The translations under genes and the position numbers were made by a program. A stretch of DNA of 64,000 nt from Escherichia coli (lineage in GTDB: Bacteria > Pseudomonadota > Gammaproteobacteria > Enterobacterales > Enterobacteriaceae): assembly GCF_044324875.1 (NCBI RefSeq), contig NZ_CP172185.1, one strand, 5' to 3'. Below the pieces are notes generated by a model. That model saw only the letters and a program-made list of their open reading frames with translations. It searched no databases and was not told the DNA's origin. Below, one piece after another: positions 2,793 to 63,055 of this stretch. The first letter of the stretch is position 1. Each line of letters begins with the position of its first letter.

Positions 2793-3761
2793 ATGAAAAC
2801 AGCAGATGCAGCGAAAGGCCGTTGGCCTGAAATATTAGAGCACTTCGGTCTGCCGCCGATAACCGGAAAAAATCACTTTAAGGGTGAATGCCCGGTATGC
2901 GGTGCACGTGGCAAGTTCCGAATTGACGACCGCGACGGTGCAGGAACGTGGATCTGTGTATGTGGTAGTGGCGATGGTATGAAACTTGTCACCCTGACAC
3001 AGGCGAAGCCATTTAACGAGATTTGTACCGAAATAGACCGCCTGATCGGTAATGATTACCAACGGGTTAAAATCCCGGTAACCAGCAGCGCCACCAGCTT
3101 ACGCAAACGGGTATTGAGCAAGTTTTCAAAACTGGAGGCACTGCGTGGTACATCCGGCGCCGCGTATCTTAATTCTCGTGGAATATTCAGTCTTCCTGCT
3201 GAGGCGATCAGGTTCAATGCCAGGCAGAGACACAACGGGAGTGTGTTCCAGTCTCTTTATTCACTTGCTACGGACGATAAAGGGGAGCTGTGCTATCTGC
3301 ATCAGACCCTGCTTGATGGTGATAAAAAAGCAGATATCGGTAGCAGTGCAAAGCGCCTCAAATCCCTGCAGGAAGATAACTATCTGGATCACGCTCGTTC
3401 TGTAGCTATCCGCATGTTTCCTGTCGCCAGCACTCTGGGTATCGCCGAAGGCATCGAAACAGCGCTGTCAGCGCACCAGATTTATAACGTGAACACCTGG
3501 GCAACCATTAACAGCGGCTTTATGAAAAAGTTCCGTGTACCAGCTGGTGTTCTGCATCTGATTATTTTTGCTGACCGTGACGAGAACAGCGCCACCGGGC
3601 TGGCTGCGGCTTGCGAATGTGCTCATGCCAATCTGATGGCAAAGAATGACCTGCAGCGCGTGAGCGTGTACTGGCCGGATCACGATGATTTCAACAATAT
3701 GCTCATGAACGGTGATCAGGTTCGGGAGCTGGTTTTCCATAAGAAAAAGGCGGTTGCGTAA
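2793..3761 (+). CDS. DNA primase-like protein (N-terminal zinc ribbon + Toprim region)
   Basis: CPVCGARGKFRIDDRDGAGTWICVCG zinc-binding motif; acidic Toprim-like FADRDEN; immediately follows helicase. Confidence 0.7.
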   Translation: MKTADAAKGRWPEILEHFGLPPITGKNHFKGECPVCGARGKFRIDDRDGAGTWICVCGSGDGMKLVTLTQAKPFNEICTEIDRLIGNDYQRVKIPVTSSATSLRKRVLSKFSKLEALRGTSGAAYLNSRGIFSLPAEAIRFNARQRHNGSVFQSLYSLATDDKGELCYLHQTLLDGDKKADIGSSAKRLKSLQEDNYLDHARSVAIRMFPVASTLGIAEGIETALSAHQIYNVNTWATINSGFMKKFRVPAGVLHLIIFADRDENSATGLAAACECAHANLMAKNDLQRVSVYWPDHDDFNNMLMNGDQVRELVFHKKKAVA

Positions 3762-7411: not shown

Positions 7412-7487
7412 GGCCCTTTAGCTCAGTGGTGAGAGCGAGCGACTCATAATCGCAAGGGCGCTGGTTCAAATTCAGCAAGGGCCACCA
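7412..7487 (+). tRNA. tRNA with anticodon CAU, ileX/ileZ-like (tRNA-Ile2 reading AUA, or Met)
   Basis: Cloverleaf folds by hand: acceptor GGCCCTT/AAGGGCC, D-arm GCTC..GAGC, anticodon loop CTCATAA, T-arm GCTGG-TTCAAAT-TCAGC, 3' CCA; close to recalled E. coli ileX. Confidence 0.85.
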
Positions 7488-7488
7488 A

Positions 7489-7565
7489 CCGCTACTAGCT
7501 CATCAGGAAAGAGCGTCAACCCTTTAAGTTGAGTGCGCTAGGTTCGATTCCCCGCTGGCGGTCCA
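7489..7565 (+). tRNA. tRNA-like element, probably degenerate (arg-tRNA-like architecture)
   Basis: Acceptor 6/7 bp, good D-arm and perfect anticodon stem, canonical T-loop TTCGATT, but T-stem has 2 mismatches and loop CCTTTAA lacks U33; ends CCA. Confidence 0.35.
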
Positions 7566-8910: not shown

Positions 8911-9444
8911 ATGAACGCAAAAATCAGATACGGCCTGTCGGCTGCCGTTCTGGCGCTGATTGGTGCTGGCGCATCTGCTCCTCAGATACTTGATCAGTTT
9001 CTGGACGAAAAAGAGGGTAACCACACAACGGCATACCGCGATGGGTCCGGCATCTGGACCATCTGTCGGGGTGCCACGATGGTGGATGGAAAACCCGTTT
9101 TTCCCGGAATGAAGCTGTCGAAGGAAAAATGCGACCAGGTTAACGCTATTGAACGTGATAAGGCACTGGCATGGGTGGAGCGCAATATTAAAGTACCTCT
9201 GACCGAACCACAGAAAGCGGGTATTGCGTCATTCTGTCCCTATAACATTGGCCCCGGTAAGTGTTTCCCGTCGACGTTTTATAAGCGGCTTAATGCCGGT
9301 GATCGAAAAGGCGCCTGCGAGGCGATTCGCTGGTGGATAAAGGATGGTGGGCGTGACTGCCGTATCCGTTCAAATAACTGCTATGGACAGGTTATTCGTC
9401 GTGACCAGGAAAGCGCATTAGCCTGTTGGGGGATAGATCAGTGA
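8911..9444 (+). CDS. Endolysin, lysozyme with N-terminal signal-anchor-release (SAR) domain
   Basis: 177 aa; N-terminal hydrophobic [16 protein letters not shown]-x8-D-x5-T catalytic spacing ([16 protein letters not shown]). Confidence 0.85.
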
Positions 9445-52989: not shown

Positions 52990-54078
52990 TCACGGCAGGC
53001 GGTGGCGAGCTTGATAATAAGCCTGCCAGTGAGCTTCTTTATGTGTAGCGACACGTTGTTCGAAGTAACGGCGCAGACGTGCGCGATCTTCTTCGTTATC
53101 TTTGACGATGGTTCCGGCAATACAGTCCACCAGGTCGGCAGGCTCCCCCGCGCGATTCGCTAAAAACCAGGCGCGGACACCCACAGCATGGGCCACGTTA
53201 ACGGCTTCAGCGGTGGACATAATCGCTGTCAGTGTATCCATTGACGTTTTCTTTTCGCCGTTGGCACGCAGATCGCGGAACGTGCGCACCAGTAATTCCA
53301 GTACCGCGTCAGGCACTTTATGCGGAATACCGCTATGGGCCAGCAAACGCGCCGAAGCACTGGCAACCAGTTCCAGCTCCTGGGCGAAATCCATAATCGG
53401 AAAGACAGTTTCAAAATCGAAGCGACGCTTTAGCGCAGCACTCATTTCATTGACGCCGCGATCGCGGGTATTGGCAGTGGCAATAATATTAAAGCCTTCC
53501 CGCGCATAGAGCTGACTGGCTTCACCAGTGAGTTCCGGCACCGTCATTACCCTGTCAGAAAGCATACCTAACAGACAGTCTTGTACTTCCAGCGGTGTAC
53601 GCGTTATCTCTTCAAAACGGACGATTTTGCCGTCGCGCATTCCCTGGTAAAGCGGGGCAGGGACCAGCGCTTCCGTTGATGGACCATGATTGATAAGCAG
53701 AGCGTAGTTCCAGCCGTACTTGATTTGATCTTCGGTGGTAGATGCGCCGCCCTGGATGGTTAACCCGGCATCGCCGCTAATAGCGGTTGCCAGTAATTCA
53801 GACAGGAGAGATTTTGCGGTGCCAGGTTCCCCCACCAACATCAAACCGCGCCCGGTAGCGAGAGTGACTAACATGCGTTCGACAGCGGAGGGACTGATCA
53901 CGACTTTACGGCTAATATTTTGCGCTTCGTCGCCAAGGATAAAAGCACGGGCCGCAGGCAAACTTAACTGCCAACCGGGCGGGCAAGGTGCGTTATCATT
54001 TTGTTTTAATTTTGCCAGTTCATCGGCGTATAACACAGCAGCAGGTGGACGCTGCAGATGATTATTCTGCGGTGACAT
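52990..54078 (-). CDS. yehL: YehL, MoxR-like AAA+ ATPase
   Basis: 362 aa from MSPQNNHLQ; Walker A GEPGTAKS, Walker B-like region. Confidence 0.85.
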   Translation of the reverse strand: MSPQNNHLQRPPAAVLYADELAKLKQNDNAPCPPGWQLSLPAARAFILGDEAQNISRKVVISPSAVERMLVTLATGRGLMLVGEPGTAKSLLSELLATAISGDAGLTIQGGASTTEDQIKYGWNYALLINHGPSTEALVPAPLYQGMRDGKIVRFEEITRTPLEVQDCLLGMLSDRVMTVPELTGEASQLYAREGFNIIATANTRDRGVNEMSAALKRRFDFETVFPIMDFAQELELVASASARLLAHSGIPHKVPDAVLELLVRTFRDLRANGEKKTSMDTLTAIMSTAEAVNVAHAVGVRAWFLANRAGEPADLVDCIAGTIVKDNEEDRARLRRYFEQRVATHKEAHWQAYYQARHRLP

Positions 54079-54510
54079 ATATTCATCCCTGAAATGTATT
54101 AATGAAATAAACGATATTTTACGCGCAATAAATGTTTGCCGCATTAGTTGTTTGAGCGAAAAATATCTGGAAAGCAGATCACAGTACATAAAAAAACCTG
54201 CTGGTGAGGCAGGTTCTTTTATTTACTATTTTCAGGCCCAACACCGCAGCCTGTGCAACATCGTGTTCCAACGAACGAATTATAACCATCGGTGGACCCC
54301 GTTGCAATTAAGATAATGAGATTTATAATCCAGACGGTTGGGACGTTGCGCCGGATCGGACCAATTTTAAGTCCTGGCTACCGGACGGGTGGTGCTGCAG
54401 GTGGTGCCCTGATCCGGAGTGCAACATCGTGGTCCAACATACGTAAACCAGTATCGACAGGCAGTGTAAGGGTAAGGTGCTGGTGTTGCGCTCCTTAATA
54501 AGGAGAGCGA

Positions 54511-54600
54511 ATGGACACGCTGACACAAAAGTTAACCGTGCTCATTGCTGTACTGGAGCTATTAGTGGCTCTGTTACGGTTGATTGATTTGTTGAAGTAA
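54511..54600 (+). CDS. zorO: 29-aa hydrophobic peptide, ZorO-like type I toxin (copy 1)
   Basis: ATG preceded by SD AAGGAGAG; encodes MDTLTQKLTVLIAVLELLVALLRLIDLLK; followed by 9-bp-stem hairpin AAGGGGGAA...TTCCCCCTT; too short for the ORF track; matches recalled ZorO of E. coli O157. Confidence 0.55.
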   Translation: MDTLTQKLTVLIAVLELLVALLRLIDLLK

Positions 54601-55118
54601 CGGGCAAATTGAAACGCATCTAAGGGGGAAAACCGCTTCCCCCTTTAATAAAATGATTACTGTTTTTATTAATTCATCATATAACTCATTTTTATTTATA
54701 AATTCATCGATTTTATATTCAACGTACCGTTTAACCGGGATGTGAATATTTATGGTGGGCTATTGGCAAAAAATATCTGGAAAGTAGATCGCAGAAAATA
54801 AAAAAACCTGCTGGTGAGGCAGGTTCTTTTATTTACTACTTTGATGTTAAGTTACTGATAGTGCAACATGGCATCTCAACGAACGAATTATAACCACCTC
54901 TGGACAGTGTTGCAATTAAGATAATGAGATTTATAATCCTGACTGTTGGGAAGTTGCGCCGGATCGAACCCATTTCAAGTCCTGGCTACCGGACGGGTGG
55001 TGCCGCAGGTAGTGCTCTGATCCGGAGTGCAACATGGCGACTCAACATACGTAAACCAGTATCGACAGGCAGCGTAAGGGTAAGGTGCTGGTGTTGCGCT
55101 CCTTAATAAGGAGAGCGG

Positions 55119-55208
55119 ATGGACACGCTGACACAAAAGTTAACCGTGCTCATTGCCGTACTGGAGTTATTAGTGGCTCTGTTACGGTTGATTGATTTGT
55201 TGAAGTAA
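55119..55208 (+). CDS. zorP: 29-aa hydrophobic peptide, ZorO/ZorP-like type I toxin (copy 2)
   Basis: Identical 29-aa product with synonymous substitutions; same SD and downstream hairpin; which copy is zorO versus zorP is arbitrary here. Confidence 0.5.
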   Translation: MDTLTQKLTVLIAVLELLVALLRLIDLLK

Positions 55209-55261
55209 CGGGCAAAGTGAAACGCATCTAAGGGGGAATACCGTTTCCCCCTTTAATAAAG

Positions 55262-55567
55262 CTATTTTTCTATTTCTTGGTTGAATATATTCTGTAGTTC
55301 GCGATTAAAAATTGCTATTACCGTTTCAGGTGATTCACCTCGTAATTTCCGCTCATCAATAAACTCATCTCTTATATAAATCAACGCATCATTTATTAGC
55401 GGGTCGGCATCATTAAATGTTGGATGTAGCTGGAACCGTTCCAGTCGGTAGACGGAACCTGTAAATAATTCAGAGCATTTATGGATCTCAAGTCTGAAGG
55501 AAAACGGATCTTCAGGTACAGGGACCTCATAATTGTAAATAGCGACCAGCTCTTTTTGCACGCTCAT
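55262..55567 (-). CDS. yehK: YehK-like small protein
   Basis: 101 aa at the position of yehK between yehL and yehI; name assigned mainly by synteny. Confidence 0.6.
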   Translation of the reverse strand: MSVQKELVAIYNYEVPVPEDPFSFRLEIHKCSELFTGSVYRLERFQLHPTFNDADPLINDALIYIRDEFIDERKLRGESPETVIAIFNRELQNIFNQEIEK

Positions 55568-55627: not shown

Positions 55628-58600
55628 TTAATGGAAAATGACGTCGGGTGCGCTTAACGCCTCACTCAAATCAAACACATCAAGTTCGGCAAAAGTGACA
55701 GATTTATTGTCACGGTATACATGAAGAGAACGGAAGCTCATTAGCGCTTTGCTATCAACATTGTAGTGGTTAAAACCGGGTGAAAACTTAAGGACCAGCC
55801 GGTACGCACCCAGGTCATAGACAAATGCGTCCTCATAGCCTGACTCCCAGCCTTTGTATCGCATTCCCATCAGTTGCCCAACGGTAGCGGATTTACCTTC
55901 CCAGCGATTCAAACTATTACTGGCTGACTCGTCAGGTGTGAGCAGCACCGTACGCCGTGCCAACTGGCGAAAAGGCGGCATAATTTCGTAATCGTCAAAA
56001 AGCTGTGCAAATTCACTGCGCATTTCTGCTGCCATTTCTAACGGGTGGGCAATGCCAATCAGAGCATCGGCAGGCAAGTCAATTGGCTCATCTTGCGCAT
56101 TGCAGAACTCCCCCTCAGCGGCCACACGAAAGGCGTTGAGTAAACGACGCGGTTCATTTGCCGGATAAACACCCCATATCAATCGCTGAGTAACCAGGCG
56201 GGTAAAGGGATGATTAACAAACAGAGAATGAAAATCTGCCAGCGACCAGCGTCGGGTGGTGCGCAGGGCAGTTTCAAGACGCGGGAGCAGGTTTTTGCTC
56301 ACCTGAGTGGCATCTTTTTTTAGCCCTTTTAGTCGGGCCAGTGCCTCGGGTGCTTTCAGTTGATCGTCATCGGCGCGCAACCGGGGAACGCTTTTCTGGC
56401 GAACGTTTTGCTGATCAAAGATAACCGGGTTAAGGTTTTCATCGAAGCGAACGGTAAATTGCCGTGGACCAAAATCAAAAATCAACGCCTGCGGATCATC
56501 AAGACCCAGTGTTGGGACTAATCTGTCCGCTAACTGTTCCTGGCTTAGCCCGCGATTTTCTGCGACCACCTGAAGAAATTCCGCCGCGTTATCACGTAAG
56601 GGGCGGGATTTCGCCCGTTGCGATATATGATGCAGCTGTATCAGTGCCATATCATTATTCATCTGAGTAAGGATGTTCAGGCCGCTGACGGCACGGGCAG
56701 ATTTGCCTTCCTGTGGCCAGGCAAGGATCTGTGTCGTCAGATCCCGTGCCGTGCTTTCGTCGCCAAAGAGACTTAACGCCAGAAATGCCCAGTTGTCTTT
56801 TGCGGGAGCACCAGCTTGTTGCCACGCGGTGAAAAGATCCCAGGCAAAGGCTGCCAGCGTTTGCGGCTGGCAAAACGTTTTCAGCTGTTCCAGTCCGCTA
56901 TAAAAACGTCCGCCCTGGGTAAAGCGCAGCATTTCGCCGATAATTTCCAGAGCGTCATCAGTAACTGGTTGATTATTCGTGATAAGGCGCGGCCTGGACC
57001 ACATTGCCGGCTGCCAGAAATCAGGGGCTTTTGGAATGCGTGTCGGGTAAATCTCTATTGGACTCTGTTTAAGTAATTGCTCCAGGGCAGGCCATACATC
57101 TGTACGCTGCCAGCGGTTTGCCACGGTTTGCAGTAACTCGCCATGTCCCTGTTCGTAAAGTAAACGCAGGGCAAGTAATGCAGCTTCGCTATTATCGCTG
57201 GATTTGGTGAAGACAAGAGGGATAAGTGCAGTAGCCGTATGTTCCGGCCACTGTAAAATCCACTGGCGGGCCAGATCACGCTGCGCCGCGAAACGTCGCC
57301 AGACGCGGGCAACGGGCAGGGCCAGTTCGGTTGCGCCGAAATGAATTAGCAGCGGAAATATCTCTTTTGGATGTCGGGCAAAGGCGGTGTTTAATCCAGG
57401 CAAAGCATCAGTGCCCAGCACACTTAACAGATATTCCACCCCGGTGTAATGAAAATCAGCCGCAACAATTTGTTGCCAGCACGATACCGCCATTTCGCGC
57501 GGCATTTGCGCGATAAGGTACAGATTCCATATCCCCCAACGCTTTTCATTACCATAGTAAAATCCGTGCTGAAAAGTTCGCCACCCTTCCATCAACGCAA
57601 TGCTATCTTGTACCAATAATGCTTTGGTGGCTTCTTCCCGGTACTGTTTAGATTTGGCCTGATGCGCGTAATAAGTACGCAATAGTCCTATTGATGTGTA
57701 TTCTTGCAGTTGCTGAGCATCAAAGGCATCCAACTGTCCATTAAGAAGACGCTTATTAAATTCCAGGCTATGAACGTCAAAGCCTAATTCCCGCAAGAAT
57801 GTATCCGCTCCTCTCTTAGCAAGACGTTCGTCAAAAGACATGGCGCTAAAATGGTCAATTGCAGTTTGCTGTTCCGGCGTCCAGTGTTCCTGGGACGACC
57901 TGCACGCTTGCGTTGCAAGTGTAAGTTCAGGCAGCGAAAAGTGAGGTATGGAAGTCTTTTTCCTGCCACGCCACGGTGGTGAAACGAGGATTTCAGGCAG
58001 ACTGCTGTTATCGGTGCAATCTATAACCGGTTTTGACGATGCCGATAAATAACTCTTCACCACTGCCCGGGCTTGAGTACTTAACCACGGCATCACCTCT
58101 TCTGCCAGTTGTGGCTGCGATGCCATCAGCGTTTGTAACAGCGTACGCCAGTATTCATCACGTGCTTTTTGCTGTGCAGGCAGCTTTTTGTCTTCGATGA
58201 TTGGATAACCAGGGCGTGCAGGCGGTTCTTTTAACGCCAGAAGCTCTGCCAGTGCGGCAAGCGTCGCATGGGGGAAATTTTTACTGTATTTAGCTACACG
58301 TTGCAGGCTGGGTTTGTTTTTATCAGCAACTAACAGCAGGGTGCGGATGACCTGCGGATGGTTAATTTGTACCAGCAGACTGCCGCAATCTTCTTTATGG
58401 GCATACATTGCCAGGCGTGGAACGGCTGCCAGTCCTTGTTCGCGCAAAAGGGCGGCGCAGGCCGCGTAGCCGAAGTGGTTTTCATGCGACATGTAGCTGG
58501 CTTCCCGATCGCTAAATATATCCTGGCTCCAGTAGCGTTCGAGTTTTTTCACCGCTCTGGGGTCATTAGCAACAACTTTTAACCACTCCTTAGAATGAAA

Positions 58601-59272
58601 ATGAGTCCGCGGGCATTCAAGGCCTACCAACTCATTGGCGATTTCTGGTTTTTCCGGGAGGATCAGCGCAATAAAAGGGCGGCGAACTTTGGTTATTCCT
58701 GGCAGTGCGGCAATGAGTTTGTCGGCGCAACGCTGCCAGCTGCTTTCCTCTGCCAGAGAGAGATGCTTACGCAGTCGGAGATCGAATTCGTTATAGGTTT
58801 CTGATCGATAACCATAGCCATAATCCTCGTTCTGATACTGCAATGTCACTAGCAGAGGATCACTCTCATAACACCGTGCAATAAACTGGCGTGCAATCAC
58901 CACCTCAGTCGCATATTCCAGTCCCTCTTGTTGGACGATTTCGTCGAGCAACTGTTGGCTATCATTTTGCGCGATACAGGCTAGCGCCGCCATTGTCCGG
59001 GCCGGAACTGAGGGTTTGTGTTCTCCGATCAAGTTGATGGCCTGCGTAATGGCCGACTGCCACTCCAGTGAAAAATTTTCATAACGCCAGACAATGTTTT
59101 TTTTCTTCTCAGCTTTTTGTAGCAATTCATCACCCAGTGTCTGGATGAGGCTTTCAGTGATAACAGGCACCGGTTCGCCCGGCCAACTGCGATGGCTGAG
59201 CGGCGTTTTGCCTTTTTTATATTTCAGTTCCACTTGGGCGTTATCCGCCAGCCACGGTAATTCCTTGTCCAT
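55628..59272 (-). CDS. yehI: YehI-like large protein (DUF4132 family)
   Basis: 1214 aa; C-terminal region shares DFGPRQFTV.FDE...LKKD...RRW...HP..R.L.RRLIWGVY with the two adjacent paralogues. Confidence 0.8.
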   Translation of the reverse strand: MDKELPWLADNAQVELKYKKGKTPLSHRSWPGEPVPVITESLIQTLGDELLQKAEKKKNIVWRYENFSLEWQSAITQAINLIGEHKPSVPARTMAALACIAQNDSQQLLDEIVQQEGLEYATEVVIARQFIARCYESDPLLVTLQYQNEDYGYGYRSETYNEFDLRLRKHLSLAEESSWQRCADKLIAALPGITKVRRPFIALILPEKPEIANELVGLECPRTHFHSKEWLKVVANDPRAVKKLERYWSQDIFSDREASYMSHENHFGYAACAALLREQGLAAVPRLAMYAHKEDCGSLLVQINHPQVIRTLLLVADKNKPSLQRVAKYSKNFPHATLAALAELLALKEPPARPGYPIIEDKKLPAQQKARDEYWRTLLQTLMASQPQLAEEVMPWLSTQARAVVKSYLSASSKPVIDCTDNSSLPEILVSPPWRGRKKTSIPHFSLPELTLATQACRSSQEHWTPEQQTAIDHFSAMSFDERLAKRGADTFLRELGFDVHSLEFNKRLLNGQLDAFDAQQLQEYTSIGLLRTYYAHQAKSKQYREEATKALLVQDSIALMEGWRTFQHGFYYGNEKRWGIWNLYLIAQMPREMAVSCWQQIVAADFHYTGVEYLLSVLGTDALPGLNTAFARHPKEIFPLLIHFGATELALPVARVWRRFAAQRDLARQWILQWPEHTATALIPLVFTKSSDNSEAALLALRLLYEQGHGELLQTVANRWQRTDVWPALEQLLKQSPIEIYPTRIPKAPDFWQPAMWSRPRLITNNQPVTDDALEIIGEMLRFTQGGRFYSGLEQLKTFCQPQTLAAFAWDLFTAWQQAGAPAKDNWAFLALSLFGDESTARDLTTQILAWPQEGKSARAVSGLNILTQMNNDMALIQLHHISQRAKSRPLRDNAAEFLQVVAENRGLSQEQLADRLVPTLGLDDPQALIFDFGPRQFTVRFDENLNPVIFDQQNVRQKSVPRLRADDDQLKAPEALARLKGLKKDATQVSKNLLPRLETALRTTRRWSLADFHSLFVNHPFTRLVTQRLIWGVYPANEPRRLLNAFRVAAEGEFCNAQDEPIDLPADALIGIAHPLEMAAEMRSEFAQLFDDYEIMPPFRQLARRTVLLTPDESASNSLNRWEGKSATVGQLMGMRYKGWESGYEDAFVYDLGAYRLVLKFSPGFNHYNVDSKALMSFRSLHVYRDNKSVTFAELDVFDLSEALSAPDVIFH

Positions 59273-59281
59273 GCTCTTTCC

Positions 59282-62200
59282 TTATTCAAACAGGGCTTCA
59301 ATATCGTTAATGAGTTCGCTGGCGGTGATGGCATCGAGTACGGAGAACTGCGCTTCCTGTGTTGAATTACTCCCCCAGCCATAGCTTTCCGCTTTGCCTT
59401 CCCATAGCCACAGCTTGCTTAAGAGTTGCTCGGCACTGAGTTCGGCTGGCGACATGCCGACCGCAAAACCTTCATCGATTTCCATGATTAACGACCAGCG
59501 GCCCAGAGGTTTGATCATCCAGCCGATCCAGCCACCGTCCTGCGGTTCACCACGCATCCAGCCTTTATTCGCCAGCCCCATTACCCGACCGCTCGGGCAT
59601 TTTCTGCCTGCCCAGCGGATCAATTCGCTGGCATTGCGCTCGGTTTCTGTCAGGGCGTAACTGTTACGGTCGAGCTGGCGGAACGGCGGTAACAGTTCGT
59701 AGTCGGCAAAAAGCTGACCAAAGGCAGCGGCATCCGTGGGTGATATTTCCAGAACGTGAGGAATGCCAACAGAGATATCGCCTTCTGGCAGGGTGAAAAG
59801 ATCATCGTCAGCGGTGCTGTAGCTGTTATCTTCCGCCACCCGAAAGCAAGCCAGTAGCTTGTTTTCGGCGCTATAAACGCCCCAAATCAGACGGCGGGTT
59901 AAGTGGCGAACCAGCGGGTGTTCAACCAGGAAGAGCTGAAAGTTTTCCGGCGACCAGCGGCGGCGCAGGCACATGGCGGATTCAAGCCTTGTCACCTGCT
60001 GGGCGGCGACGGTACGCGTATCTTTTTTCAGGAGTTTGTAGCGGTTTACCGCCTCATCAGCCCGCGATTCATCATCGCTTTTGTTTGGTTTGGGCAGGTC
60101 TTTCAGGCGGCTGCCGGAAGCATCGCGCACAAACGGTTTTAAGGTTTCATCAAAGCTGACGGTGAACTGACGTGGGCCAAAATCCAGCAGCAGCGAACCG
60201 TTATCATCCAGTCCCAGATCCGGGGCCAGGCGATCTTCAAGCTCCGCTACCGTGAGTTCGCGGCTTTCGGCAATGTCGGCAATTTTCTCTTTCGCCCGCT
60301 CCTGTAAGGCTTTGAATTTCAGTTTCTGGGCGATGCCGTTAAGCTGCATCAGGGCGATATCGCTGCTGATAGCGGCGAGGATATCAAGCCCGACGGTGGC
60401 GCGTTTATGCTGGGATTCGCCAGGCCAGGCGCGAATCAAAGGCGTCAGTTTGCGGGCGGTGTCATCGTTGCCGAGAACACCTAACGCAGTGAATGCCCAG
60501 CTTTCTTTAGACGGTGCGCCAGCGGTCTGCCAGGCGGTAAACAGATCCCAGGCAAATTCAGCCAGTGAGTCGGCGGTACAGGCGGCTTTCACCTGCAATA
60601 ATCCCGGATACAGTGCCTCTTCCTGAGGGAAGCGGAGCATTTCACCGAGGCGTAGGAGGGCGCTATCTGGCAGTGATTGGGCATTTGCTTTTAATACCGG
60701 GCGGGTCCAGAGCGATGGCTGATAAAAGGCCGGAAGAGTGGGGATTTTTGTCGGGTGATTATCTAAGGCATCGAGCGCAAGCAGAGCGTTCACCGCATCG
60801 GTTACTTCCGGCTGGTTATAACGCCGGGCGATTTCTTGCAGTAATGGCTGATGACCGTTTTCGGTAAGCATACGCAAGGCAGCGCGGGCGTTATCCTGGG
60901 CTTCACCGGCTTTGCCGAGCGCCGCGGGCAGCAGGCCGGTAATGGCGTGTTCCGGGTATTTCAGCAGCCAGCTACGGGCGTCTTGTCGTAGGGTTTTGAG
61001 TTTGTTGAAGGCGCGGGCGATCAGTGGCGCTAATTCGATAGCCGCAAAATATTGTGCTACAGGCAGAGCTTCTTGTGGATAGCGTGAAAAGGAGTGAATA
61101 AAACCCTGTAACCCAGCGAGTTGCAGGTGCGTCATGACAAACTCGACACCGACGTGTGGCTCTTTACTGAGGACATTCCACGCCTGCGCTGTTTTTTCGA
61201 TAGGCAGGGCGGCTAACATGTAAAGTTGCCATTCCCGTTGATAGGAGTGCCAGAAGGTTTTAAATTCGCTGATTAGCGCAGAATAATCTCCCCTCTGCCA
61301 GAGTTCTACAACAGCATCAGACGCTTTCATATACTGGCCATTATTCCAGCGATTGAAACCCAGACGTGTCAGGTAGTTCTGAATATCCTCTTTTTGGCCG
61401 ATGTCTATTTGATGTGCGTGCCAGCGATGCCTTGCATGAATCTCTTTTTCTGCCGTCTCGGTCAATGTGCAGCATGACTCCAGCGGTAATGGCGTTAAAT
61501 CCAATACCGGCATTACAGATTTTTTCTTTTTCGAAAGCCAGGGCGGTGAGACTAATATGGCTGGCAGCATATCGGCGCTGGCATGGTTTGAGGGCTGTTT
61601 CAGTTGTTGCTGGCATGATTTCAGTACGGCAACTGCGGGTGTCGAGAGCCAGGGAATGACCTGTTCTGCTAGTATCGGTTGCGAGATAAGCATCGTCATT
61701 AGCATCATGCGCCAGCGCTTTTCATCTTTTTGTGCCAGAAGTTCTGCTAATGCCGCCAGCGCTGCGTGTGGGAAGCGAACGAAAGCCTTTGTCATGCGAT
61801 CGTGGCAACGCTTTCCTTGCTCGCTTGCATGGATAAGTAGTGTAAGTGCCTGCGGGTGGTTGATATGCATCAACACTTCACCACATGTGTCACCAGTAGC
61901 GTAATGGGCAAAACGGGCCAGCGCAGTGACTCCTTGCTCCTGGAGTGCTGTCGCACACCAGATGTTACCGCCATAGTAATCATCAAATACCTGCCCAGGC
62001 TGTCCTGGATAGTATTTTTCCAGGTCTGCTAATACCTGAGCATCGGTGACCGTCAGTTTTAGCCATTCCAGCGCATATAACCCTTTTTGCCCGCAAAAAT
62101 GTCTGGCAATCTCATGAGCTACTTCTGGTTTTTCCGGCAACAATAGTGCAACCAGCGGCTGGTGCCAGGCGGGCATGTTTCCGAGAGCGGCAATCAGTTT

Positions 62201-63043
62201 GTCGGCGCAGCGCTGCCATACATCGTCATTTGCAAGTGAGAAATGCTTACGCAGGCGCATTTCAACCGAGGCAAAGCGCAACAGATAGCCAGGCTGCCTG
62301 TCATCCGGGGTGAACGTAATAAGATGGGCATCATAATCCCAGTCGAAGCGGATGAATTGCAGTGCAATGACAACCTCAGTGGCATATTCCAGACCACCTT
62401 CCTGGACAATTTGATCCATTAACTCTTCGTGATCGTTACGATTGAAGCCTTGTTCCAGCGCAACCAGTACCGCCAGAACCATCGGTGGTAGCGTGGTGCT
62501 AATCGGCGAGTCGATAAGGCCCACTGCTTGTGTTATCGCCTGCTGCCAGTCCAGTGAACAGGTGCTGTAATCGAAGGTGATCACCTTTTTAAAACGTCGG
62601 TGAGTATTCGCGGCGACGGAGCGTAGCAGAGTTAATTCATTCTCCTGTGGCACAGGATCGCCAGGCCAGCGTCGATGACTTAGTGTGGTTGGCGCAACCT
62701 CTGTCGGTAAAATGATTTGGGCGTCGTCTGCCAGCCAGGGGAGGTTGTCTCCAACAAATACTGGTTTGTCTTGTGGCAAAGGGGCTATTTCGGGGCATTC
62801 GATAACCTGGACGGGGACAGATGTCGGTGTTATCACGGATACTTCTTCTACGTAGCCCTTTTTTGTTTTCTCCGCAATCAACTTCAGTTCCGCTTTTTCC
62901 GCCGCCGCAGCATCAGCAAAGCTTTTTACCTGACTTTGCCCGTTGGTGCTGACTTTACCCCAGCTAATATGCAGCTCGTTTCCCTGCTGCTCCACCGCCC
63001 AGAATTTATGTGATTTTTCGTCCTGATAAATATAGGTTTTCAT
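59282..63043 (-). CDS. molR: MolR-like large protein, N-terminal WGR domain plus DUF4132-type C-terminus (intact)
   Basis: 1253 aa; N-terminus MKTYIYQDEKSHKFWAVEQQGNELHISWGKV is a WGR motif; paralogous to yehI-like neighbour. Confidence 0.8.
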   Translation of the reverse strand: MKTYIYQDEKSHKFWAVEQQGNELHISWGKVSTNGQSQVKSFADAAAAEKAELKLIAEKTKKGYVEEVSVITPTSVPVQVIECPEIAPLPQDKPVFVGDNLPWLADDAQIILPTEVAPTTLSHRRWPGDPVPQENELTLLRSVAANTHRRFKKVITFDYSTCSLDWQQAITQAVGLIDSPISTTLPPMVLAVLVALEQGFNRNDHEELMDQIVQEGGLEYATEVVIALQFIRFDWDYDAHLITFTPDDRQPGYLLRFASVEMRLRKHFSLANDDVWQRCADKLIAALGNMPAWHQPLVALLLPEKPEVAHEIARHFCGQKGLYALEWLKLTVTDAQVLADLEKYYPGQPGQVFDDYYGGNIWCATALQEQGVTALARFAHYATGDTCGEVLMHINHPQALTLLIHASEQGKRCHDRMTKAFVRFPHAALAALAELLAQKDEKRWRMMLMTMLISQPILAEQVIPWLSTPAVAVLKSCQQQLKQPSNHASADMLPAILVSPPWLSKKKKSVMPVLDLTPLPLESCCTLTETAEKEIHARHRWHAHQIDIGQKEDIQNYLTRLGFNRWNNGQYMKASDAVVELWQRGDYSALISEFKTFWHSYQREWQLYMLAALPIEKTAQAWNVLSKEPHVGVEFVMTHLQLAGLQGFIHSFSRYPQEALPVAQYFAAIELAPLIARAFNKLKTLRQDARSWLLKYPEHAITGLLPAALGKAGEAQDNARAALRMLTENGHQPLLQEIARRYNQPEVTDAVNALLALDALDNHPTKIPTLPAFYQPSLWTRPVLKANAQSLPDSALLRLGEMLRFPQEEALYPGLLQVKAACTADSLAEFAWDLFTAWQTAGAPSKESWAFTALGVLGNDDTARKLTPLIRAWPGESQHKRATVGLDILAAISSDIALMQLNGIAQKLKFKALQERAKEKIADIAESRELTVAELEDRLAPDLGLDDNGSLLLDFGPRQFTVSFDETLKPFVRDASGSRLKDLPKPNKSDDESRADEAVNRYKLLKKDTRTVAAQQVTRLESAMCLRRRWSPENFQLFLVEHPLVRHLTRRLIWGVYSAENKLLACFRVAEDNSYSTADDDLFTLPEGDISVGIPHVLEISPTDAAAFGQLFADYELLPPFRQLDRNSYALTETERNASELIRWAGRKCPSGRVMGLANKGWMRGEPQDGGWIGWMIKPLGRWSLIMEIDEGFAVGMSPAELSAEQLLSKLWLWEGKAESYGWGSNSTQEAQFSVLDAITASELINDIEALFE

Positions 63044-63055
63044 TGCTAAATCCTT

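Follow-up and report, generated by a model that had tools for sequence, protein, structure and literature searches.

Evidence for a two-copy zor/orz type I toxin-antitoxin locus with P-type and Q-type units between yehL and yehK of Escherichia coli

Introduction

What is encoded in the 1.2-kb interval between yehL and yehK of Escherichia coli? In a stretch of 64,000 nucleotides of E. coli DNA (contig NZ_CP172185.1; hereafter the window), this interval contains a tandem repeat, and the RefSeq/PGAP annotation of the interval is empty in 12 of the 12 genomes inspected. The original prediction, made from the letters of the sequence, described a tandemly duplicated type I toxin-antitoxin-like locus resembling zorO/zorP that the open-reading-frame track had missed. 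The empty annotation is consistent with the last point.

The zor/orz system was discovered in 2010 and dissected between 2014 and 2024 (Fozo 2010; Wen 2014, 2017; Shore 2024), and has been reported only in E. coli, Shigella and E. fergusonii. In E. coli O157:H7 EDL933, the zorP/orzP pair corresponds to z3290 and sRNA-2 (Fozo 2010, PMC2887945; Wen 2014) and zorO/orzO to z3289 and sRNA-1. [quoted passage not shown] 2024, PMC11264685), and its common protein variant is ZorQ (A20S) (PMC11264685).

Here, we analyzed the repeated interval at the levels of DNA, RNA and protein. The region is almost certainly the two-copy form, common in E. coli, of the chromosomal zor/orz type I toxin-antitoxin locus, and here it consists of one P unit and one Q unit; no sequence feature speaks against this reading.

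Organization and genomic position of the locus

The interval holds two direct tandem units of about 495 bp that are about 91% identical, with a period of 608-610 bp (window 54156-55258). This agrees with the tandem duplication of roughly 500-bp units that had been proposed. Two repeat families were detected, 54156-54232/54766-54842 (92% identity) and 54253-54552/54861-55160 (91% identity), and pairwise alignment placed the limits of homology at 54156 to ~54650 and 54766 to ~55258. Beyond these limits, the identity between the copies drops to 20% in the left flank and 52% in the right flank. Thus, the conserved unit comprises ~495 bp, whereas the period is ~609 bp. A 495-bp repeat at 91% identity together with the two Rfam matches described below is far beyond chance. 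The features of both units are summarized in Table 1.

The alignment of the copies loses homology in an AT-rich spacer, which is kept in two-copy strains. This spacer is the presumed zone of convergent termination for the zor mRNA of unit 1 and the Orz RNA of unit 2. A 30-codon ORF within it differs from O157 by non-synonymous changes and is probably spurious.

The position between yehL and yehK is common to O157 and 11 other complete genomes, and the z3289/z3290 repeat family was found at this site by Fozo et al. 2010 (PMC2887945). By megablast, the interval found a match in 5,234 of the 5,426 complete genomes of E. coli.

Table 1 Coordinates of the features of the yehL-yehK interval in the window.
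Feature	Position	Strand	Remarks
yehL	52990-54078	-	Left flanking gene
Unit 1 orzP-type sRNA gene	54188-54272	-	~83-85 nt; 5' end GUUGGAACACGAUGUUGCAC; V1 (+9..+11) = ACG
Unit 1 orzP-type terminator hairpin	54195-54215	-	Intrinsic, followed by a U-run
Unit 1 divergent promoter block	54279-54329		Both promoters; one -35 hexamer for both directions
Unit 1 orz -10 TATAAT	54284-54279	-	Promoter consensus scan
Unit 1 palindromic -35 TTGCAA	54302-54307	both	Serves zor and orz
Unit 1 zor -10 TATAAT	54324-54329	+	Promoter consensus scan
Unit 1 zorP-type 5' UTR	54337-54510	+	174 nt; first 28 nt are the cis-inhibitory segment
Unit 1 EAP region	54409-54438	+	+73..+102; Orz target 54418-54438
Unit 1 SD AAGGAG	54500-54505	+	+164..+169, within the CUCCUU/AAGGAG hairpin
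Unit 1 toxin ORF	54511-54600	+	29 codons and stop; ZorO protein sequence
Unit 1 zor 3' hairpin, presumed terminator	54622-54645	+	9-bp, G/C-rich, -14.6 kcal/mol; AAGGGGGAAAACCGCUUCCCCCUU, then UAAUA
Spacer between units	54651-54765		AT-rich, ~115 nt, unrepeated
Unit 2 orzQ-type sRNA gene	54798-54880	-	~81-83 nt; 5' end GUUGAGAUGCCAUGUUGCAC; V1 = GCC
Unit 2 orzQ-type terminator hairpin	54805-54825	-	z-score of the unit 2 orz fold, -4.4
Unit 2 divergent promoter block	54887-54937		orz -10 54892-54887 (-), zor -10 54932-54937 (+)
Unit 2 palindromic -35 TTGCAA	54910-54915	both	Common to zor and orz
Unit 2 zorQ-type 5' UTR	54945-55118	+	174 nt; EAP region 55017-55046
Unit 2 Orz target	55026-55046	+	AGUGCAACAUGGCGACUCAAC
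Unit 2 SD AAGGAG	55108-55113	+	+164..+169
Unit 2 toxin ORF	55119-55208	+	29 codons and stop; ZorO sequence, Ala20 rather than the A20S ZorQ variant
Unit 2 zor 3' hairpin, presumed terminator	55230-55253	+	9-bp, G/C-rich, -15.3 kcal/mol
yehK	55262-55567	-	Right flanking gene, convergent; stop codon 9 nt from the unit 2 3' hairpin

Both units encode the ZorO peptide

Each unit was expected to end in an SD sequence, a 29-codon ORF encoding the same peptide and a hairpin, and all of these were located in both units. Both ORFs translate to MDTLTQKLTVLIAVLELLVALLRLIDLLK, a hydrophobic peptide of 29 residues. An exact look-up identified this peptide as UniProt ZORO_ECO57, 'Small toxic protein ZorO' (100% identity), so the comparison with the ZorO family, which had been named as a check, gave the ZorO sequence itself. 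The peptide is also the synthetic ZorO peptide of Otsuka et al. (PMC6669753). A scan of the 29 residues with NCBIfam HMMs returned no family, the peptide being too short or unmodelled there.

Comparison of the two ORFs over their 90 nt showed 2 differences, each of them synonymous (GCT/GCC at Ala13 and CTA/TTA at Leu17). The original prediction was right that the substitutions are synonymous; its further step to selection on the peptide is weak on two changes, because the neighbouring 72 nt of non-coding sequence (UTR +103..+174) are conserved between the copies as well as the ORF is (97.2% and 97.8% identity, respectively). Homogenisation or an RNA-level constraint therefore fits equally well. 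In a small cross-strain sample, the ORF showed four synonymous and four non-synonymous sites (T3S, T9I, A20S, and R23Q), a pattern that may fit moderate purifying selection and is no strong proof of it. The function of the ZorO protein is established by experiment and is independent of the argument from synonymous changes.

Orz sRNA genes and divergent promoters

We searched the window with Rfam models. The OrzO-P family (RF02083) matched the minus strand of unit 1 at 54190-54265 with 101.3 bits and that of unit 2 at 54800-54873 with 91.7 bits, the gathering score being 60; the whole-window E values were 1e-15 and 1e-13, respectively. When the Orz transcriptional start site (TSS) was set at 54272, the published V1 numbering was obtained for the O157 units (GAA in OrzO and ACG in OrzP), and the sRNAs were 83-85 nt long, compared with the published ~85 nt (PMC2887945). 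These minus-strand matches bear out the divergent orz-like sRNA that had been predicted, with one correction: Orz does not overlap zor as a true antisense RNA would but is divergent from it, and it pairs via ~20 nt at its 5' end. Other matches of Rfam models to the orz terminators (Thr/Trp leaders, STnc370, and mir-374) were sub-threshold and were rejected as generic likeness between terminator hairpins.

A promoter consensus scan detected one divergent pair per unit; in unit 1, the zor and orz promoters each had 10/12 matches. The zor promoter reads TTGCAA-N16-TATAAT on the plus strand (54302-54329 and 54910-54937), and the orz promoter reads TTGCAA-N17-TATAAT on the minus strand (54307-54279 and 54915-54887). 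The conserved -35 TTGCAA and -10 TATAAT of both genes and the RBS AAGGAG were present in both units; the same promoter hexamers are >99% conserved (Shore 2024 Table 3, PMC11264685).

Structure of the zor 5' UTR

The zor TSS was set 7 nt after the -10 element, at the G of 54337 and 54945. The UTR length of 174 nt, the position of the SD, and the end of the Orz target at +102 then agreed with published values. The best Orz-complementary 21-mer was found at +82..+102, 73-93 nt upstream of the ATG, and the published Orz target lies 72-92 nt upstream of the ATG (PMC2887945). Between the zor TSS and the end of the 3' hairpin lie ~310 nt; published zor transcripts are ~310 nt in full length and ~280 nt in the Delta28 form. 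The 3' hairpin of unit 1 was left unflagged by a consensus terminator scan because its U-tract is short.

When the unit 1 mRNA was folded by minimum free energy (z = -2.3), +1..+27 paired with +66..+102, and the SD was sequestered in CUCCUU/AAGGAG. The RNAalifold consensus of 14 distinct UTRs paired +1..+22 with +74..+102 and retained the SD hairpin. The fold of the unit 2 mRNA was not significantly stabler than those of shuffled sequences (z = -1.3). In the UTR consensus fold, double compensatory changes were seen in 0 of 54 pairs, the changes being wobble-compatible or located in loops. The folds computed here reproduce the published pairing of the 5' end with the EAP region and the published SD hairpin; the data are compatible with this structure, whose proof is the published structure probing. 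The structured 5' UTR that had been anticipated was recovered, with its 174 nt, its sequestered SD and the published positions.

The conserved UTR might itself be taken to code for protein, as 60-68 aa plus-strand ORFs (54292-54498 and 54924-55106) or 53-aa minus-strand ORFs that occur in both copies and in O157, but this reading is hardly credible and was rejected: the differences between the copies are mostly non-synonymous (8 non-synonymous and 5 synonymous codons in the plus frame, 7 and 2 in the minus frame), the shared plus-frame ATG (54316/54924) lies between -35 and -10 and upstream of the mapped TSS, the ORFs are without an SD, and published primer extension and probing define the region as UTR.

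Assignment of the units to the P and Q types

Typing of 19 units, taken from the window and from 12 genomes, gave three clusters; it drew on the 5' end of Orz, the target in the UTR, the peptide, and identity over the whole unit. At the RNA level, these comparisons assign unit 1 to the zorP/orzP type and unit 2 to the zorQ/orzQ type; the Q label, although indirect, is well supported. The label of zorO/zorP-like given at the outset therefore holds for the kind of system, type I zor/orz with the ZorO peptide, and is to be corrected at the RNA level from O and P to P and Q.

Across the stretch running from orz to the stop codon of zor, unit 1 shared 96.4% identity with the zorP/orzP unit of EDL933. 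They agreed in the first 24 nt of Orz (V1 = ACG), the UTR target, the geometry and the yehL-proximal position. The two differ in the peptide, as unit 1 encodes Thr3 (the ZorO protein) and the EDL933-type ZorP has Ser3.

Unit 2 clustered apart from the O and P types. Its Q assignment was made with the W24 unit encoding ZorQ A20S as a proxy for the query of Shore 2024. Unit 2 is 99.0% identical to this second unit of W24 over 412 nt, with no difference in the 5' end of Orz or in the UTR target. The W24 ZorQ has Ser20, whereas unit 2 has Ala20, as in the ZorO protein. Because this Q-type unit carries Ala20, the same ZorO protein is encoded by both units. The 63-nt 5' region of the Q-type orz was found in 855 of 5,426 complete genomes, E24377A included. 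We found no experiments on a Q-type pair in the literature; the Q class is defined bioinformatically.

We also considered an arrangement exactly like that of EDL933, with zorO/orzO beside zorP/orzP. Both ORFs encode the ZorO protein, and the place of unit 2, next to yehK, is that of zorO/orzO in O157; the protein, architecture, promoters, UTR length, SD, and target position of EDL933 zorO/orzO are as in the window. The pairing module differs (OrzO GUUGGUACGAAAUGUUGC and target GCAACGUUUCGUACCAAC in EDL933). Identity to the EDL933 zorO/orzO unit was 88.8% for unit 2 and 87.4% for unit 1, compared with the 99.0% that unit 2 shares with the ZorQ A20S unit. The V1 of the unit 2 Orz is GCC and not the GAA that characterizes OrzO, and +5..+8 differ as well. 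O157 OrzO was predicted to pair only weakly with the unit 2 target (16/20, longest run 9, -23.4 kcal/mol). Identity, V1, and pairing led us to reject zorO/orzO for unit 2 at the RNA level, and the EDL933-like arrangement is very improbable as a whole.

The divergent, limited-pairing type I systems tisB/istR-1, shoB/ohsC, and dinQ/agrB of E. coli are of similar design. In these, too, the 5' end of the divergent sRNA base-pairs with ~18-21 nt in the long 5' UTR of the toxin, and 5' processing and a standby-type site are likewise required for translation. Their toxins are unrelated and lie at other loci, and zor/orz is without known SOS control. These pairs are functional analogues of zor/orz, not family members. 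The Rfam model of ohsC gave a weak, sub-threshold match to the unit 2 orz (33.6 bits; gathering score, 50).

Pairing and specificity of the Orz RNAs

We predicted the duplexes between the Orz RNAs and the UTR targets. In both units, 19/20 positions of the cognate duplex were paired, arranged as 6(1)13, and the predicted energies were -34.0 and -34.4 kcal/mol. The crossed P/Q pairs had a longest run of 9 and predicted energies of -21.3 and -22.6 kcal/mol. According to Wen 2014, at least 15 contiguous pairs, or at least 17 nt interrupted by a single internal mismatch, are sufficient; by this rule the pairing of the cognate RNAs is sufficient and that of the crossed pairs is not. Both cognate duplexes are mismatched at Orz +7. 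In experiments, OrzO lost its function when a single mismatch was placed at certain positions (8(1)9).

Divergence between the copies is concentrated in the pairing modules. Identity between unit 1 and unit 2 was 75% in Orz +1..+20 and 83% in the EAP target, compared with the values above 97% given for the downstream UTR and the ORF. From strain to strain, changes at the 5' end of orz go together with changes in the UTR target, and the combinations fall into three classes. Such joint change of the two sides of the duplex supports an RNA-RNA interaction and variation against cross-talk, an idea already voiced by Shore et al. (PMC11264685).

From the predicted duplexes, we infer that each Orz may control only its own neighbour, which would give two orthogonally regulated copies of one toxin. 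A wider joint reading of the pairing and folding models is possible, although we would place it somewhat short of probable. The P and Q modules would be orthogonal classes, and the variable core of the target (+93..+97) would lie in the unpaired loop of the cis helix, a placement that would let the O, P, and Q specificities diversify. The constant flanks GCAAC/CCAAC would be common to the cis lock and to Orz, so that the mRNA 5' end, GUUGGGAnGUUGC, would be a built-in, specificity-free mimic of Orz. In the same joint reading, the single palindromic -35 could make initiation of toxin and antitoxin transcription mutually exclusive.

The mismatch in both cognate duplexes might also be read as decay, with one or both units being relics comparable to the orz-only remnant of K-12. 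Orz-only remnants occur in ~30% of E. coli genomes, and the K-12-like locus in our set (L012) is without the ORF. In the window, both promoters, the Orz terminator, the UTR, the SD, the ORF, and the 3' hairpin are intact in both units. The P pair of EDL933 has the same mismatch, and the pairing lies within a criterion that judges 99.8% of loci competent. Because every scorable element is intact, unlike in the L012 remnant, decay of either unit is highly unlikely.

Proposed mechanism

With both units read as intact P and Q pairs, their mode of action can be outlined from experiments on EDL933 zorO/orzO (PMC3919570, PMC5397157, PMC6669753, and PMC2887945). Overproduction of the EDL933 ZorO led to growth stasis, a depolarised and permeabilised membrane, and hydroxyl radicals (PMC6669753 among the sources). 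In its full-length form, zorO mRNA was poorly translated, and removal of the first 28 nt opened the EAP region and raised translation. OrzO bound at the EAP region blocked translation; rescue by OrzO was exerted via its first 18 nt and required RNase III, not Hfq. For the P pair, toxicity (Z3290) and expression of the sRNA were demonstrated (PMC2887945).

In the window, the two divergent sigma-70 promoters of each unit would yield a ~310-nt zor mRNA and a ~85-nt Orz sRNA. The first ~28 nt of the 174-nt zor UTR would pair with the EAP region (+73..+102), and the primary zor transcript would be poorly translated because a local hairpin closes off the SD. Loss of the first 28 nt would expose the EAP region and promote ribosome loading, and the 29-residue ZorO would be made, enter the inner membrane and depolarise it. 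The first ~20 nt of Orz would base-pair with the 3' portion of the EAP region, leading to a block of translation and to RNase III-dependent decay, for which Hfq would not be needed.

Prevalence and significance

The locus is ordinary for E. coli, and the system, the duplication, the sRNAs, the UTR mechanism, and the third type are already known from publications. More E. coli assemblies have two copies (42%) than any other number. The practical value of the analysis lies in the annotation gap, as the 1.2-kb interval left empty by RefSeq/PGAP contains a pair of toxin genes and a pair of sRNA genes despite existing Rfam and UniProt entries. The presence of these genes indicates that a scan that flags the interval works correctly. 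The window also offers a clean natural case in which P and Q, as two different RNA 'locks', act on a single toxin protein, and the P/Q allele, carried for example by Ecol_316 and E24377A, is usable for testing the rules of sRNA specificity and cross-talk.

The wider neighbourhood contains a lambdoid prophage ~10 kb from the zor/orz locus and unrelated to it. Collinearity with the closest backbone (Ecol_316) starts at window 43739, 68 nt inside mlrA. Left of this mlrA junction, the prophage carries phage-21-like head genes, gpJ, and tail-fibre genes, and the same region contains an IS66-family element and a tRNA-Met/tRNA-Lys pair.

Divergent promoters and 5′ ends of zor and orz

Each zor/orz unit contains a single palindromic − 35 hexamer, TTGCAA (54302-54307 in unit 1 and 54910-54915 in unit 2), which is common to the zor and orz promoters. 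The spacers measured from this hexamer are 16 nt for zor and 17 nt for orz. Because one TTGCAA would serve both directions, the promoter sequences suggest that RNA polymerase can occupy only one of the two divergent promoters at a time, never both. The zor/orz papers give an identical − 35 hexamer for both genes; no discussion of a common zor/orz hexamer was found in the text searched.

The 5′ end of the zor mRNA, GUUGGGAnGUUGC (54337-54349), is similar to the Orz 5′ end, GUUGG...GUUGC (54253-54272), and the equivalents in unit 2 are likewise similar. The constant flanks of the Orz target in the EAP region of the zor 5′ UTR, CCAAC and GCAAC, are pairing partners of both the zor mRNA 5′ end and the Orz 5′ end. 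In the consensus cis helix, formed by the zor mRNA 5′ end and the EAP region, the target core that varies among the O, P and Q types (UTR about + 93 to + 97) is predicted to be single-stranded.

Variant zor/orz loci in other strains

E. coli JA0265 carries a single-copy locus whose unit (about 496-900 of the extracted locus) shares 95.6% identity with the Q reference unit; a fourth Orz 5′ variant, GUUGGGGCGCCAUGUUGCAU, was found there opposite a Q-type UTR target. In the K-12-like strain 9FA, an OrzP-type gene is present with its promoters, all intact, without the zor ORF (401-721 of the extracted locus). This orz-only remnant matches the orphan antitoxin OrzPmg of the literature. Unit 1 of strain TB06051 is intact, apart from the loss of 6 nt (+ 130 to + 135) from its P-type zor UTR, which is thereby 168 nt long.

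Genes flanking the locus

OrzP is transcribed toward yehL (54190-54078, minus strand), and only ~ 110 nt separate the end of its terminator from the downstream start codon annotated for yehL (54078). Judging from this arrangement, we speculate that OrzP read-through might add to yeh operon transcription.

On the yehK side, the zorO terminator hairpin of O157 AR-0428 is separated from the stop codon of yehK by an additional 53 nt (roughly 3665-3717 of its extracted locus), an insertion that is missing from the window at about 55260. The two YehK proteins also differ in length (105 aa in O157, 101 aa in the window) and show an internal indel. Three tandem DUF4132-family genes (55628-64000, minus strand) adjoin yehK, encoding 1214 aa, 1253 aa and a third product truncated by the window end. 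The first is the yehI counterpart, annotated as frameshifted in Ecol_316, the closest backbone genome.

Prophage to the left of the locus

Positions 1-43738 appear to be a lambdoid prophage inserted in mlrA (yehV); collinearity with Ecol_316 begins at 43739, 68 nt within mlrA. From the tandem tRNA pair up to the large ORF that follows at 8911, no ORF of at least 150 aa was detected; thus, an stx operon is unlikely at that place. The ORFs of the IS66-family element (512, 115 and 133 aa) resemble TnpC, TnpB and TnpA, respectively.

Features of the prophage region
Feature	Position	Strand	Location
tRNA-Met(CAT) and tRNA-Lys(TTT), tandem pair	7412-7565	+	within prophage
Phage-21-like terminase, portal and capsid genes	~9.4-19.2 kb		prophage
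gpJ and tail-fibre genes	~30-37 kb		prophage
IS66-family element	38287-40620	-	prophage tail/accessory region
YadA/Eib-like ORFs	41095-42375		prophage region
DinI-like ORF	43276-43524		prophage region
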